64,000 bases of DNA from Clostridia bacterium (GTDB taxonomy: Bacteria > Bacillota > Clostridia > Monoglobales > Monoglobaceae), in assembly GCA_017546145.1 (NCBI GenBank), contig JAFYXN010000013.1, positions 5,213 to 69,212 of the forward strand, given 5' to 3'. Under the pieces are notes generated by a model. It searched no databases. It saw nothing but the letters and a program-made list of their open reading frames with translations, and had not been told where the DNA came from. This document shows positions 40,575 to 46,178 of this stretch, piece by piece. Within the stretch, counting starts at the first letter, position 1; every line of letters starts with the position of its first letter. Both the position numbers and the translations under genes were made by a program.

Positions 40575-43103
40575 ATGAAACTGTCGTTTTCAACCAAGGG
40601 ATGGCATGGCCGTTCCTTTGAGGATTTTTGCGAAATAGCAAAAGATATGAAGTTCGAGGGTATTGAACTTCATAACATATACAACCCGCTTTTTACAGAA
40701 AAGGACGGCGCGTTTTATAACTATGCAGCTGCTGCAACGGTAAGACGGCTTTATGAGCTTAAGCTGACGCTTCCTTGCATTGACACTCTTTGCGATTGTG
40801 CAGATATTTCCTCTAAGGCTAAAGCATTGGAAGAAATTAATCAATGTATAAAAATTGCAACTAATCTTCATATTCCTAACGTACGTATTCGTGCAATAGG
40901 CGAAGGCATAGAAAAACAATCAGCAATCTCTGCTGTAATGGAAATCCTTTCTGAAGTTGTGCCAAATGCAGAGTCAAACAATGTTTCCCTGCTTTTGGAA
41001 ACCTCCGGAATTTTCTGCGATACAGCGGCACTTCGTGAGGTTTTGATTGATTTTGCAAGTGACTCACTTGGTGCAATATGGGATATGTATTCACCGTATT
41101 TTACTTGTGGTGAACAACCCGAAACAACAATTACAAACTTGGGTGCGTATGTGCGCCATGTGCATATTAAGGACGCACAGCGCACTGAAAATGGCACCGA
41201 ATTTTGTCTTATGGGCGAAGGTGAGCTTCCGATAGGTGAGATGATGGCTGCACTGCGCTCGGTGAATTATGACGGATTTATCTCTCTTGAATGGCATCCG
41301 GGTTGGTGCGAAGAGCTTGATGATATGGAGATTATCTTTGCTCAGTTTGTCAATTATATGAAACAGTACAGTGACCCTGCAAAGAACACACCTGCACTAT
41401 ATTCAAATAACACACATACCGGAAAGTACGTATGGAAAAAAGACCTCTTGATTGATTGCACCTTTGGTCAGGTACTTGACCGTATGGTAGAAGAATTTCC
41501 GGACCAGTACGCTTTTAAATATACAACTCTTGATTACACAAGAACCTACAGCGAATTTCGTGATGATGTTGACGAGTTTGCGCGTGCTCTTGTTGCAATG
41601 GGTGTTAAAGCGGGCACACACGTTGCTGTTTGGGCAACAAATGTTCCCCAGTGGTACATTGCATTTTGGGCAACCACTAAAATCGGAGCCGTTTTGGTTA
41701 CTGTAAACACAGCTTATAAAATTCATGAGGCTGAGTATCTGTTTAAACAGTCAGATACACATACGCTTATTATGGTTGACAGCTATCGGGACTCAAACTA
41801 TTCGCAGATTATTGCTGAGCTTTGTCCCGAACTGGAAGATTTAAAGCCGGGACAGCAGCTTCATGCAAAACGTTTGCCATTCTTGCGCAATGTAATTACA
41901 ATTGGCTTTAAGCAAAAAGGCTGCCTTGAGTGGGAGGATGCAGTTGCGCTTTCTTCAAAGGTTCCTGTTGAAACTGTTTATCGCATGGCGGCAGCAGTTG
42001 ATAAAGATGATGTCTGCAATATGCAGTACACATCAGGTACAACAGGCTTCCCTAAAGGGGTAATGCTGACGCACTACAATGTTGTAAATAACGGAAAGTG
42101 TATTGGTGACCGTATGGATTTGTCAACAGCAGACCGAATGATGATTCAGGTGCCAATGTTTCATTGCTTTGGAATGGTGCTTGCAATGACTGCATCAATG
42201 ACTCATGGTGCAACACTTTTGCCGCTTCCGTACTTTTCACCAAAGCCTGCACTTGCGTGTATCAACCGCGAACATATTACTGCATTCCATGGCGTTCCAA
42301 CAATGTTCATAGCACTTTTGGAACACCCTGATTTTGAAAAAACAGATTTTTCTTATATGCGTACAGGAATTATGGCAGGAAGTCCTTGCCCTATTTCGGC
42401 TATGCAGGATGTTGTAAACAAAATGAATATGAAGGAAATTACCATTGTTTATGGTCAGACCGAGGCATCTCCCGGATGTACCATGAGTTCTGCTGATGAC
42501 CCGCTTGAAGTACGTGTTGCAACTGTTGGACGTGCACTTCCCGAAATTGAGTGCAAAATTGTTGACCCTGACACGGGTGAGGAATGCCCTGATGGTGTAA
42601 ACGGTGAATTTGTGGCGCGCGGATACAATATCATGAAGGGATATTACAAGATGCCCAAGGCAACAGCAGCTGCAATAGATAAAGATGGATGGCTTCATAC
42701 AGGTGACCTTGCTTGCCGTACACCTGAAGGCAATTATAAAATTACAGGACGACTTAAGGATATGATTATCCGTGGTGGTGAGAATATTTATCCCAAAGAA
42801 ATTGAGGAGTTTATTTATACTCATCCGATGGTTAGTGATGTTCAGGTTATAGGCGTTCCTGACGAACAATATGGCGAAGAAATTATGGCTTGTATTATTC
42901 TTAAAGAAGGAGAAAGCATGACCGAGCAGGAAATGAAGGAATATATTCTTGCTCACATGGCAAAGCACAAGGTTCCAAAGTATATAGACTTTGTTAAGGC
43001 ATTCCCGATGAATGCTGCAGGCAAAATCCTTAAATACAAAATGCGTGAAGATGCAGTTGTTAAACTTGGTCTTCAAAAAGCAGACAGCGTGGTGACAGCA
43101 TAA
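40575..43103 (+). CDS. fusion protein: xylose-isomerase-like TIM barrel (AP_endonuc_2) domain plus AMP-dependent acyl-CoA synthetase
   Basis: 842 aa. Residues 1 to about 270 (GIELHN..LLLETSG..HVHIKDA..ISLEWH) form the TIM barrel. Residues from about 300 to 842 carry YTSGTTGFPKGVMLTH, YGQTE, TGDLA..ITGRLKDMIIRGGENIYP and GKILK. Confidence 0.8.
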   Translation: MKLSFSTKGWHGRSFEDFCEIAKDMKFEGIELHNIYNPLFTEKDGAFYNYAAAATVRRLYELKLTLPCIDTLCDCADISSKAKALEEINQCIKIATNLHIPNVRIRAIGEGIEKQSAISAVMEILSEVVPNAESNNVSLLLETSGIFCDTAALREVLIDFASDSLGAIWDMYSPYFTCGEQPETTITNLGAYVRHVHIKDAQRTENGTEFCLMGEGELPIGEMMAALRSVNYDGFISLEWHPGWCEELDDMEIIFAQFVNYMKQYSDPAKNTPALYSNNTHTGKYVWKKDLLIDCTFGQVLDRMVEEFPDQYAFKYTTLDYTRTYSEFRDDVDEFARALVAMGVKAGTHVAVWATNVPQWYIAFWATTKIGAVLVTVNTAYKIHEAEYLFKQSDTHTLIMVDSYRDSNYSQIIAELCPELEDLKPGQQLHAKRLPFLRNVITIGFKQKGCLEWEDAVALSSKVPVETVYRMAAAVDKDDVCNMQYTSGTTGFPKGVMLTHYNVVNNGKCIGDRMDLSTADRMMIQVPMFHCFGMVLAMTASMTHGATLLPLPYFSPKPALACINREHITAFHGVPTMFIALLEHPDFEKTDFSYMRTGIMAGSPCPISAMQDVVNKMNMKEITIVYGQTEASPGCTMSSADDPLEVRVATVGRALPEIECKIVDPDTGEECPDGVNGEFVARGYNIMKGYYKMPKATAAAIDKDGWLHTGDLACRTPEGNYKITGRLKDMIIRGGENIYPKEIEEFIYTHPMVSDVQVIGVPDEQYGEEIMACIILKEGESMTEQEMKEYILAHMAKHKVPKYIDFVKAFPMNAAGKILKYKMREDAVVKLGLQKADSVVTA

Positions 43104-43908: not shown

Positions 43909-43933
43909 AAAAAACAGCCTTAGGGCTGTTTTT
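43909..43933 (+). terminator. intrinsic terminator ending the T-box(Leu) operon
   Basis: AAACAGCC-TTAG-GGCTGTTT followed by TTATTTT. Confidence 0.75.
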
Positions 43934-43976: not shown

Positions 43977-44144
43977 ATGCGGATAATAAGATATATAAAC
44001 GGAAAACGTGTCAGCAAGCCCTTTGACAACAGCATAATTGTTGATAAAAACGAAATTTCACAGGCAATAAACAGCGCAAATCGCAGATTGAGAGGCACAG
44101 ATAACAGAAATATTCATGCCAACTTTGGTTTAGAAAATGAGTAA
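43977..44144 (+). CDS. 55-aa basic protein of unknown function, translationally coupled to the recombinase (below the ORF-track cutoff)
   Basis: I translated MRIIRYINGKRVSKPFDNSIIVDKNEISQAINSANRRLRGTDNRNIHANFGLENE. AAGGAGA lies 7 nt upstream, and its last 8 nt (ATGAGTAA) overlap the recombinase start. Confidence 0.5.
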   Translation: MRIIRYINGKRVSKPFDNSIIVDKNEISQAINSANRRLRGTDNRNIHANFGLENE

Positions 44145-45492
44145 AATTGCAGCAATCTATATTCGTGTTTCAACGGATGCTCAAAGGGAAGAAGGCTATT
44201 CAATAGATGCACAAAAAGAAATGCTTACGGCATACTGTGTGTCAAAGGGAATAAAGTGTTTTGAATATTATATTGACGGTGGATTTAGCGGAAGCAATAT
44301 TGAACGTCCTGAATTGAAAAGGCTTATAGGGGATGTCAAGGAAGGAAAAATCGGATGCGTGCTTGTTTATAAGCTTGACCGTCTTTCAAGAAGTCAGAAG
44401 GACACTCTTTATTTGATTGAAGATGTGTTTAACCCGTATGATGTGGATTTTGTTTCGCTTAACGAAAGCATGGATACATCAACACCGCTTGGTAGGCTGA
44501 TGCTTGGTATACTTTCGGCATTTGCACAGCTTGAACGAGAAAACATTAAAGAACGTACAAGTATGGGTATGAAGGAAAGGGTTAAAGAAGGCTACTGGAT
44601 GGGTGGAGGCCGTGTTCCGTTTGGCTATGACTATGATTCCAAAAAGGGTATTCTTGTCCCAAACCAAGATGCCGAAACTGTACGAAAGGTCTATGAACTG
44701 TATCTCGGCGGTTATTCAACCAATGCAATTGCAAGAATGGTTGGCTTAAGCTATGAACGGCTTGCAAGACAAATTCTAAAGCGAAAAACCAACGCAGGGT
44801 TTATTGTTTATAAAGGCGAGGAGTTCTTAGGAAAGCACAAACCTATAATAAGTCTTGAAACCTATGAACGTGCTATGCAAAAAATGTCAGAACGCTCGGG
44901 CAAATTTAAAGGCGACGCCCAAAACCTTCTTACTGGATTGGTAAAATGCGGTGTTTGCGGAGCAAAGATGCGATATCATAAATGGGGAAAACAAGGCTAC
45001 AAGCTGGTTTGTTATTCAAAGGATAAAAGTAAACCGCATCTTGTAAAAGACCCTGACTGTACAAATAACGGAATTTGGGCTGATGAACTGGAAAATGTGG
45101 TAAAAGAAGACCTATTTTCATTGGGTATAAAAAGCACTAAAACAAAATTTGATAACGAAAAAAGTGTTATTGATATTTTAAAAGAAAACGAAAAAAAGCT
45201 TTCTGATAAGTTAAAGCGGCTTTATTCTCTTTATGCAGAGGCGGAGGATGAAATTCTTAAGGAGTCTATTAAAGAAATAAAGATTAATTTGGATAGTATA
45301 CAAAAGCAGATAAAACGCGAAGAAAAAGAAAGGGTTATCTCTAAAAGGAACAATGAAATAAAAAAACAACTCAGTACGCTTCGTGAAACATGGAAATATC
45401 TTACCCCAAAAGAAAAACGAAATATTATTGAAAGCTGTGTATCAGAAATTGTTGTAGCAGATGATAATGCAGAAATATACTACAAATTTTAG
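44137..45492 (+). CDS. large serine recombinase (SpoIVCA/phage-integrase type)
   Basis: 451 aa. The catalytic region is AAIYIRVSTDAQ..YKLDRLSRS. It also has a recombinase domain, a zinc ribbon (CGVCGAKM..CYS..DPDC) and a coiled-coil tail. Confidence 0.9.
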   Translation: MSKIAAIYIRVSTDAQREEGYSIDAQKEMLTAYCVSKGIKCFEYYIDGGFSGSNIERPELKRLIGDVKEGKIGCVLVYKLDRLSRSQKDTLYLIEDVFNPYDVDFVSLNESMDTSTPLGRLMLGILSAFAQLERENIKERTSMGMKERVKEGYWMGGGRVPFGYDYDSKKGILVPNQDAETVRKVYELYLGGYSTNAIARMVGLSYERLARQILKRKTNAGFIVYKGEEFLGKHKPIISLETYERAMQKMSERSGKFKGDAQNLLTGLVKCGVCGAKMRYHKWGKQGYKLVCYSKDKSKPHLVKDPDCTNNGIWADELENVVKEDLFSLGIKSTKTKFDNEKSVIDILKENEKKLSDKLKRLYSLYAEAEDEILKESIKEIKINLDSIQKQIKREEKERVISKRNNEIKKQLSTLRETWKYLTPKEKRNIIESCVSEIVVADDNAEIYYKF

Positions 45493-45493
45493 T

Positions 45494-45535
45494 TTTTCTA
45501 CATGGTACATTCATTGGCACAGCGTACGTAGAAAA
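45494..45535. repeat. att-like imperfect inverted repeat centred on the sigG breakpoint
   Basis: TTTTCTAC (45494-45501), 26-nt spacer, GTAGAAAA (45528-45535). Inner GTAC elements lie at 45505-45508 and 45524-45527. The dyad centre at 45514/45515 coincides with the last SigG-like codon. Confidence 0.6.
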
Positions 45536-45799
45536 CTTAACACCGTGAGAGGTATCAAAATTATCAAGTGCCTTAATAAGCCCGATGCAACCTACCTGAA
45601 ATAAATCGTCTATATTTTCGTTCCTGTTTGAAAATCTTTGCAGTACACTAAGTACAAGTCTTAGATTGCCGTATATAAATTCTTGACGGGCGTTTGTATC
45701 GCCCCTTTGAATTTTGGAAAAAAGCTCTTGCTTTTGAGCCTCGCTCAAAACGGGAAGCTTTGATGTGTTTACTCCGCATATATCAACTTTGTTAATCAT
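45512..45799 (-). pseudogene. sigG: 5' fragment (96 codons, regions 1.2-2.3) of sporulation sigma factor G; the 3' half is missing
   Basis: MINKVDICGVNTSKLPVLSEAQ..GNLRLVLSVLQRF..DDLFQVGCIGLIKALDNFD..VKFSTYAVPM matches B. subtilis SigG (KVEICGVDTSKLPVL..FSTYAVPMIIGEIRRYLRDN). The sequence after PM is unrelated (NVPCRKTKICS..) and stops at 45425 inside the recombinase gene. The RBS GGGGGA and an upstream GTATA-N16-GAAATAATA are intact. Confidence 0.8.
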
Positions 45800-45938
45800 T
45801 TTCCCAATATCCCCCTTTTGTTTTCCATAATATTATTTCACAAACAAACTTTGGATATACCGAAAATTATTTTCTTTGTTTTAAATTCATAAGGTAAAAT
45901 TTTTTGGCATAAAGTATGTAAAAAAGGGAGGGATTCAG

Positions 45939-46178
45939 TTGAAATGCAGTATAAACGAGCTTAAAACAAAGGAAGTAATAAATGTTTCCGATGGAGCAAG
46001 ACTTGGATTTGTTTCAGACGTTTTGCTTGATTTAAAAGAAGGCAGAATTGTTGCGTTGATTGTTCCGGGAGCATATCGGCTTATGGGCTTTCTTGGAAGA
46101 GATGAAGACGTAATAATTAATTGGGAAAATATCAAAAAAATAGGTGATGATATTATAATTATTGATAATATTTCTTAA
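45939..46178 (+). CDS. YlmC/YmxH-family PRC-barrel sporulation protein
   Basis: 79 aa. ELKTKEVINVSDGARLGFVSDVLLDLKEGRIVALIV..INWENIKKIGDDIIII. The TTG start lies behind AAGGGAGGGA. Confidence 0.8.
   Translation: MKCSINELKTKEVINVSDGARLGFVSDVLLDLKEGRIVALIVPGAYRLMGFLGRDEDVIINWENIKKIGDDIIIIDNIS

Follow-up and report, generated by a model that had tools for sequence, protein, structure and literature searches.

We analysed a stretch of 64,000 nucleotides (nt) from a Clostridia bacterium of the Monoglobaceae (assembly GCA_017546145.1, contig JAFYXN010000013.1, positions 5,213 to 69,212), hereafter the window. In this window, the sporulation sigma factor gene sigG is cut in half beside a large serine recombinase gene, as an earlier note on the same DNA had pointed out. 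The half-gene lies on the minus strand at 45512..45799 and comprises codons 1–96 with sigma regions 1.2–2.3, up to ...FSTYAVPM. Its open reading frame (ORF), 45425..45799, encodes 124 amino acids (aa), of which 96 belong to SigG and the last 28 are unrelated. The SigG equivalog models of NCBIfam match residues 1–98 only. PRK08215 scores 168.7 bits over profile positions 2–99 of 258, against a cut-off of 372 for full-length SigG (PRK08215/TIGR02850); therefore, the gene is a half-gene. The SigF model gives 91.8 bits, about half the SigG score. With SigG of B. subtilis as the tblastn query, residues 4–98 were aligned to 45793..45512 with 67% identity, and no other match was present in the 64 kb. 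Sigma regions 2.4–4.2, previously reported as missing, were not found by this search anywhere in the window, and no sigG 3' half lies within 45.5 kb of the half-gene on one side or within 18 kb on the other.

The similarity ends abruptly after the ATG at 45512–45514, as had been stated, while the tail counted earlier as 29 codons consists of 28 codons and a stop (45425..45511, minus strand). This read-through tail contains no sigG sequence and is antisense to the 3' end of the convergent recombinase gene and to the P' arm of the attachment site described below. A ribosome binding site (RBS), AGGGGG, is located at 45811–45816. Farther upstream is a promoter-like element, GTATA-N16-GAAATAATA (45831..45860, minus strand, recognized as a sequence pattern), in which GTATA (45856–45860) and GAAATAATA (45831–45839) are separated by a 16-nt spacer. 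We take it to be a target of forespore sigma factors, by its likeness to the sigma-F/G consensus. NCBIfam, tblastn and the sequence itself agree with the first reading of 96 sigG codons preceded by an RBS and this element. The pattern GTATA-N16/17-G(A/C)AAATA(A/C)T also precedes the half-gene of a second species (L002; loci used for comparison carry L numbers) and the intact sigG of L238. The window proteins correspond to MBR5614451.1 and MBR5614452.1, and the closest named relatives by SigG are in Ructibacterium (Oscillospiraceae).

The recombinase gene (44137..45492, plus strand, 451 aa) is convergent with the sigG half and ends with the stop codon TAG at 45490–45492. Three Pfam domains were detected above their cut-offs, namely Resolvase (residues 5–153, 147.6 bits), Recombinase (177–253) and Zn_ribbon_recom (264–326). 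The RVSTDAQ motif at residues 10–16 belongs to the resolvase catalytic domain with its serine nucleophile. The protein matches PHROG 95 (integrase) with E=2.4e-120, and the catalytic domain of the TP901-1 integrase, its nearest relative among solved structures, matches with E=8e-40. The earlier label "SpoIVCA-type" is correct in the broad sense of a large serine recombinase, but the nearest solved relative is a different one and no NCBIfam equivalog cut-off was reached. The XisF model (NF041201) aligns end to end with 142 bits, far under its equivalog cut-off of 375. No close relative was found among cultured phages; the best match, to a metagenomic "Bacteriophage sp." that carries no annotation, has 49.6% identity. 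The attP arms exceed the attB arms in length, as described below, and the enzyme fits the phage-type large serine integrases in domains and sites, with its catalysis predicted. A 55-aa ORF (43977..44144, plus strand) overlaps the start of the recombinase gene. It has no match in Pfam or PHROG, and its homologues, with the motif (I/V)xRY(I/L)NG, lie 5' of the recombinase gene in all groups of related elements. From its position and size, it is a candidate recombination directionality factor. Upstream of these small ORFs, a GGnnAATA-like −10 element recurs without a consistent −35 element.

The sigG half and the element meet in a hybrid attachment (att) site of the attL type (45494..45535, minus strand), which was delimited by junction comparison. 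It is composed of the B arm TTTTCTACGTACGCTGTG (45518–45535), the crossover dinucleotide CC (45516–45517) and the P' arm AATGAATGTACCATGTAGAAAA (45494–45515). A search with the 22-nt arm gave one match in the window, with none expected. The inverted repeat noticed earlier, TTTTCTAC (45528–45535)-N26-GTAGAAAA (45494–45501), was confirmed and is made up of the B arm with a 10-nt spacer, the CC, and the P' arm with a 14-nt spacer. The repeat and the hybrid site are real, but the break is not exactly at the dyad centre. Comparison with about 200 other junctions places the crossover at the CC of a Pro codon, 2 nt from the centre, because the spacer is 10 nt in the sigG arm and 14 nt in the element arm.

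The attB consensus of 78 intact sigG genes is AAATTTTCcACttAtGCaGTtCCtATGATaATaGGaGAAATa, which contains TTTTCnAC-N10-CC-N10-GGnGAAAT. The gene itself carries a quasi-palindrome, with TTTTCnAC and its mirror GnnGAAA(T) at a distance of 10 nt on either side of the Pro-codon CC, and the bases of the motif are constant because they are fixed by the protein sequence KFSTYAVPMIIGEIRR. In the element arms, the TTTTCnAC motif is 14 nt from the CC. An offset of 10 versus 14 nt is as expected between the attB and attP half-sites of serine integrases; the structural model of Rutherford et al. 2013 and Van Duyne & Rutherford 2013 reportedly predicts an outward shift of the distal motif by 4–5 nt in attP relative to attB. 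The P' arm of the window mirrors the P arm of C-half junctions (L097) and of the free attP in the phage L226. The latter, located between the recombinase gene and a gene for a 202-aa protein, reads TTTCGACTAGGTACATTCAT CGGC ATGAATGTACCTAGTCGAAA, that is, two perfect 20-nt inverted arms with a 4-nt spacer. The arms are palindromic; therefore, the orientation of the element is set solely by the polarity of the central dinucleotide relative to the recombinase gene, which is CC in L009 and GG in L226 and the window. These features identify the break in the window as a hybrid site at which a large serine recombinase has acted.

The break is not singular, and the scope of the earlier interpretation, correct in kind, was too small. 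A search with the 96-residue N-half gave a list of 120 proteins that favours short ones, and counts from it refer to the matches listed. This list is biased; therefore, it shows abundance and not exclusivity. In about 100 of the 120 short proteins, SigG-like sequence extends to ...FSTYAVP(M); then comes NV(L/P/I)(W/C)..., which the conserved element arm encodes. A metagenome scan for the pattern element arm-CC-sigG 3' half (the P-B' junction) gave at least 120 stretches, and the sigG C-half follows the junction in 118 of the 120 among the matches listed. The coincidence of break and repeat, which had been named as a check, recurs at the same position in both sets. A representative library at 50% identity holds well over a hundred clusters of the type "SigG N-half + something else", and proviruses in IMG/VR also break at the same sigG nucleotide. 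These junctions show that a large family of temperate phages, remnants included, commonly uses codon 96/97 of sigG for integration, at the Pro-codon CC within ...AVPM|IIGE...; the system in the window belongs to this family. Orthologues of the recombinase at other sigG junctions are 37–70% identical to that of the window, and at least three clades use this codon (63–70%, about 50% and about 37% identity).

Complete phages, prophages and reduced forms were all observed. Free phages are represented by some IMG/VR contigs, in which the order is small ORF-recombinase-attP-202-aa gene-terminase, portal and capsid. Phage genes are present between the junctions in the relatives L097, L186, L222, L226 and L232. 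In some prophages, the recombinase gene is convergent to the N-half, as in the window (L221–L224, L240–L242); in others, it is co-directional with the C-half and abuts it (L229–L231, L257–L265). At the far end of the prophage, a gene for a protein of 168–205 aa lies beside the other sigG half (L097, L186, L227, L232). Among the IMG/VR entries L240–L293, dozens of predicted proviruses of 30–110 kb end in a host sigG half.

Smaller elements use the same codon. L212 (8.4 kb) has toxin-like and unknown cargo. Three elements of 2.5 kb (L009, L012, L187) contain a 185-aa gene, a small ORF, the recombinase gene and nothing else. Inserts of 0.43–0.6 kb (L005–L008, L117; for example, L005 10297–10724 and L007 2497–2937) have both att arms and no recombinase, and they look like non-autonomous elements that need a recombinase in trans. 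An intron was considered for these inserts and rejected; there was no Rfam match, and both ends are att arms. The two sigG halves flank the 0.43-, 0.6-, 2.5- and 8.4-kb elements in direct orientation (L005, L117, L009, L187, L212). In this family, sigG is split in frame at one defined site by an element with the recombinase gene at its edge. One species holds both alleles, an intact sigG (P0365) and split halves (P0062/P0050 and P0264), of identical sequence. In L005, a separate spoIIAA-spoIIAB-sigF operon adjoins the split sigG.

Some further features of these elements were noted. The family of 168–245-aa proteins (N-terminus MTRKQAL...) always adjoins the att site on the side opposite the recombinase and is kept even in the 2.5-kb mini-element (L009 7504–8061; L097 9460–9966; L226 11391–11999; also L186, L192, L212, L213 and L227). 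It has no Pfam or PHROG match and may act as a regulator or be the actual directionality factor. The cargo of L212 (1454–9800) is not of phage type and includes a 123-aa protein resembling MazF/PemK, a 922-aa protein of unknown function and, after the recombinase, a 479-aa protein; this element may be a small defence island. ParA- and ParB-like genes lie at the element end beside the sigG C-half in L213 (4174–6754), and some sigG-targeting elements may be plasmid-like or phage-plasmids. A second break in sigG was observed inside region 4.2 (around C-half codon 141–145), after ...EIGI or ...EIHIS and before QAQVSRLEK, in C-half ORFs of L101, L113, L119, L131, L137, L142, L148, L150, L182, L185, L213 and L219. 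The foreign tails that follow are conserved (xHSKMxYxFxRNxDAYKG or PNKRKQEKG), and sister contigs of the same species end normally. The last ~20 sigG codons were not found within 6–7 kb downstream. In some genomes, sigG may be in three pieces.

In the window, no phage structural or replication genes lie beside the recombinase module, and profile annotation of the 44 kb there confirmed the earlier description of the left flank as core metabolism. At least 44 kb of core genes are found, including those for an amidohydrolase, an acyl-CoA ligase, a leuA-like gene, ilvE, 2-oxoacid:ferredoxin oxidoreductase (POR), a complete pyrimidine (pyr) operon and pyruvate kinase. The terminator of the amidohydrolase operon (43910..43933, plus strand) marks the boundary between the core chromosome and the module. 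To the right of the sigG half are ylmC, genes for NAPRTase and PRPP synthetase, and later mreBCD-pbp2-minCD. The sporulation gene ylmC/ymxH (45939..46178, plus strand; NCBIfam TIGR02888, 89 bits, cut-off 44) is divergent from sigG and marks the native sigG locus. A comparison with relatives that have an uninterrupted sigG, as had been suggested, showed ylmC at the same position in the intact L238 locus as in the window and L002. In these three loci, ylmC is upstream and divergent; in most Clostridia (L028 and many other intact loci), it lies just downstream of sigG on the same strand. An 842-aa fusion of AP_endonuc_2 (a xylose-isomerase-like TIM barrel) and a fatty-acid CoA ligase is encoded at 40575–43103 and is absent from the syntenic region of L002.

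The arrangement is conserved in L002, which shares 85% identity with the window in the SigG N-half and 70% in the recombinase. Its gene order is ylmC-N-half-recombinase-small ORF-amidohydrolase-ilvE-POR-CbiA-pyrC-carB, and synteny with the window extends over more than 10 kb. The boundary of the module is homologous in both (terminator, about 30 nt, RBS, small ORF); therefore, the arrangement predates the split of the two species. The proportions of non-synonymous (pN) and synonymous (pS) differences between the two are 0.095 and 0.78 for the N-half, and 0.21 and 0.78 for the recombinase, compared with 0.084 and 0.61 for the neighbouring core gene ilvE. The small ORF of L002 keeps its frame and N-terminal motif, and the non-coding element arm, AATGAGTGTCCGTTGGGGAAAT, still fits the family consensus. 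These data show that the half-gene, the recombinase module and the site arm are under selection in the window lineage. No phage body is left there, and the module stands between core genes and the sigG 5' half.

The mirror situation was found in a high-GC group from the human gut, with the order pta (antisense)-small ORF-recombinase-site-sigG C-half, and with pdxS, pdxT and an alanine symporter gene further out (L173, L101, L113, L141, L144, L156, L190 and others). Exact protein matches place this group in Agathobaculum. The pdxS product (MCO7159491.1) and the recombinase (MCO7159486.1, also WP_253007698.1), on a 2.86-Mb contig, are those of A. butyriciproducens, and a pta product matched A. 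hominis. No N-half was present within 6.5 kb of these C-halves, and none of Agathobaculum was among the candidate N-halves listed. The order is kept across species with pta 76–100% identical. The ratio of non-synonymous to synonymous substitution rates (dN/dS) is 0.06–0.15 for the C-half and 0.07–0.24 for the recombinase. A third lone-half case lies beside polysaccharide genes (L014–L016). L192, in which only a 202-aa gene stands between a non-phage gene and the C-half, may be the corresponding partner type. Together, these loci show that a lone sigG half with a recombinase module amid core genes is a recurrent, stable and selected state. In the Agathobaculum-type locus L175 (3774–4890), the last ~440 nt of the recombinase gene stand before the site and are preceded by an unrelated 364-aa ORF; L175 is either a deletion variant or a chimeric contig.

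From the sequence comparisons, the window arrangement is very probably functional. Because the half-gene and the recombinase are under purifying selection, the sigG partner half very probably exists elsewhere in the genome. The 3' half and the reciprocal site, TTTTCTACnnnGTACnTTCAT-nCC-RATGATnATnGG, would be located in the chromosome at least 45 kb away. We consider it slightly more probable than not that this distant half is rejoined during sporulation by the recombinase and a factor and that the split state is restored later. In sporulation, the recombinase and a directionality factor (the 55-aa protein and/or the 170–200-aa att-adjacent protein of relatives) would join both sites and rebuild sigG, either by inversion of the intervening DNA or by its excision as a circle that stays in the forespore. 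When the factor is absent, the recombinase would catalyse attB × attP, its natural direction, and the split state would be back after germination and be inherited. Such a restoration is expected because sigma-G acts in the forespore and because serine integrases without their factor run only attP × attB.

Among the variants of the rejoining, inversion of the DNA between the sites is possible but tentative, and excision and re-integration of a large arc is only slightly less likely. Inversion was rated slightly higher because large origin-symmetric inversions are the commonest way in which prophage ends are separated without disturbing strand bias. The reaction that it needs is known from engineered attL/attR switches of Bxb1 and phiC31, which invert with the directionality factor and flip back without it. 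These switches are artificial and act over short distances, and we know of no natural inversion of this type on the scale of a chromosome. That the germ-line sigG is rebuilt in the forespore by a reversible flip of a large segment between distant inverted sites is put forward as a speculation that we hold somewhat unlikely. Both sites would be needed inside the forespore; therefore, the cut would tie sigma-G synthesis to completed chromosome translocation. The version with excision and re-integration, if true, would account for the persistence of the 2.5-kb and 0.43-kb sigG elements across the spore stage.

Several observations weigh against a rejoining of distant halves. The 3' half and partner site of the window organism were found neither in the window nor among the metagenome P-B' junctions listed, and no second att-like site is present in the 64 kb. 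The DNA preceding the 55-aa ORF contains neither a sigma-70-type promoter nor a clear −35 element of the GTATA type, which leaves forespore-specific expression unsupported by the sequence. Intact sigG genes exist whose N-halves are identical to that of the window at 84 of 96 residues; therefore, the clade is not uniformly split. GC skew and gene orientation are alike on both sides of the junction. This uniform skew excludes a recent asymmetric inversion, and it is equally compatible with an inversion that is old or symmetric about the origin, with a direct arrangement, and with a simple deletion at this locus. As to the reach of the searches, the window's clade is absent from the at least 120 metagenome stretches listed, in which the C-halves are at most 78% identical to that of L018, where 83–86% would be expected. 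A scan of genome collections with a chimeric full-length SigG query gave only intact sigG among the matches listed, in a ranking that favours full-length genes. The statement that all nearest relatives are truncated was also considered and was rejected because of the bias to short proteins and the intact genes just mentioned.

The alternative that survives best is a dead relic, in which a prophage entered sigG and a subsequent deletion, reaching as far as the amidohydrolase operon, took away the phage body together with the reciprocal site and the 3' half; sporulation was lost, and the half-gene and recombinase would be leftovers. This is the simplest single event that places the module beside core genes, and it leaves skew and gene orientation undisturbed. 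The flank is oriented as native downstream genes would be (in the intact L238, all neighbours are antisense to sigG), and no 3' half from an NCBI metagenome-assembled genome of the window's clade is among the C-half fragments listed. Gut Firmicutes are reported to have lost sporulation commonly (PMC8340488). However, the boundary common to the window and L002 dates the event before the species split, and the frames of the N-half, the recombinase and the small ORF have remained open since, with non-synonymous change 4–8 times below synonymous change. The non-coding arm of L002 and the promoter pattern have also been kept, and the promoter-less C-half of Agathobaculum has a dN/dS of about 0.1 across several species, unlike a deleted gene. 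We regard the relic as unlikely. An insertion and deletion that killed sigG, one of three options in the earlier note, is the least likely of them, with the half-gene, recombinase and site arm under selection since the arrangement arose.

A second alternative assigns no developmental role to the element, which would block sporulation at the sigma-G stage, so that spores come from a cured minority. Many carriers are indeed ordinary prophages with terminase, portal, capsid and NrdD genes, the polymorphic species has intact and split alleles, and contigs often end at the junction, as expected of mixed populations. However, the window has no phage left to be cured, yet its module is conserved, and the 2.5-kb mini-elements and 0.43-kb two-armed inserts persist with intact halves although they are unable to spread as phages. 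If only cured cells formed spores, passage through a spore would rid any lineage of the element. We consider this explanation quite improbable. A two-piece sigma factor, whose halves are translated separately and assembled on RNA polymerase with no DNA rearrangement, is very improbable. Two-subunit sigma factors exist (SigO-RsoA of B. subtilis), the C-half always begins with a duplicated ATG of ...AVPM, and it could be co-transcribed with the recombinase in co-directional arrangements. However, the junctions read have no RBS in front of this ATG, the gene is severed between regions 2.3 and 2.4, and the idea does not account for the conservation of a recombinase and symmetric sites at precisely this point. 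A chimeric contig, which the origin of the window in a metagenome-assembled genome might suggest and which had been named as a check, is scarcely credible, since the identical junction is present on 6–7 independent contigs of different assemblies (NCBI, ENA, Logan; up to 185 kb, the length of ENA contig ERZ28019117 k141_402893) and, in the second species L002, in three JGI samples. Moreover, hundreds of other elements use the site at which the join lies.

A rejoined sigG would differ from what has been described for spore formers. The skin element with the recombinase SpoIVCA interrupts sigK in B. subtilis, C. difficile and 12 further species (PMC5025042, bioRxiv 10.1101/2022.02.25.481979). 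A survey of 180 Firmicutes genomes reported a split sigK in 15 species and, on sigG, only its presence in every spore former. Papers on skin, SP-beta, gin and recombination units list mother-cell genes only and make the germ-line argument explicit. Sigma-G is forespore-specific (PMC4191935). No description of an interrupted sigG was found in full-text literature searches of incomplete coverage, which agrees with the earlier supposition that such a gene is undescribed. The accompanying argument, that an excision in the forespore would be inherited, reflects current views fairly. Every gene-interrupting element so far described in spore formers lies in a mother-cell gene, and the accepted reason is that a discarded genome can afford irreversible excision. 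This rule is at odds with a sigG that is split in hundreds of genomes and whose halves and recombinase are under purifying selection. Either the rearrangement would be reversible in the spore-forming cell, or the spore would arise from a differently treated copy of the genome; either would be a novelty in bacterial development.

The family is also a source of numerous natural serine integrases, from at least three clades, whose 40-bp target is known, and of candidate directionality factors. Agathobaculum butyriciproducens, which is cultured and common in the human gut, provides a bacterium for testing the question. A paper on sporulation genes of gut phages lists sigma-F/G homologues as phage-carried and does not mention integration (PMC10294663). 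In catalogues of gut viromes, part of the "phage-carried sigG" may consist of host half-genes that lie at the ends of proviruses.

Skin is one of the closest known systems. In both skin and the sigG family, a sporulation sigma factor gene is split in frame by a prophage-derived element, whose edge carries the recombinase gene beside one gene half together with a small directionality factor (a candidate here). The sizes range widely, from about 2.6 kb to 48 kb in skin, and no other gene is common among the elements. However, the target of skin is sigma-K of the mother cell, whereas here it is sigma-G of the forespore; therefore, the rearranged genome is the inherited one. In addition, the two halves in the window are not on either side of a compact element. 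SP-beta with SprA-SprB, which interrupts spsM, is an active temperate phage with a sporulation gene as its attB (PMC4191935, PMC5499854). Its small factor gene is directly 5' of the serine integrase gene, and reduced derivatives occur, as in the sigG family. In contrast, sprB is preceded by a mother-cell promoter, and no such promoter was assigned here. The gin element in gerE of B. cereus ATCC 10987 (PMC5595907) resembles the 2.5-kb sigG elements (L009, L187) in being a non-prophage element with little beyond a recombinase and its sites, but it interrupts a mother-cell gene and both halves are adjacent.

Two further systems extend the comparison. In the comK prophage of Listeria monocytogenes, "active lysogeny", as summarised in two papers (PMC6957869, PMC13492144), restores the gene by excision in a surviving cell that keeps the element. 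A cycle of this type would be the only kind able to keep a sigG element in the germ line. However, the comK recombinase is of a different type and the system has no developmental programme; reversibility at sigG is our inference. The fdxN element of Anabaena resembles the window in that a large serine recombinase, XisF (NF041201), rebuilds a gene during differentiation, as is proposed for sigG, but the window recombinase is far from that model by score and the heterocyst is a terminal cell. In skin, SP-beta, vfbin, vrin and gin, the interrupted gene acts in the terminal mother cell, which does not apply to sigG. The sigG case nevertheless belongs to the intervening elements of sporulation genes; its new features are the forespore target and the separated halves.

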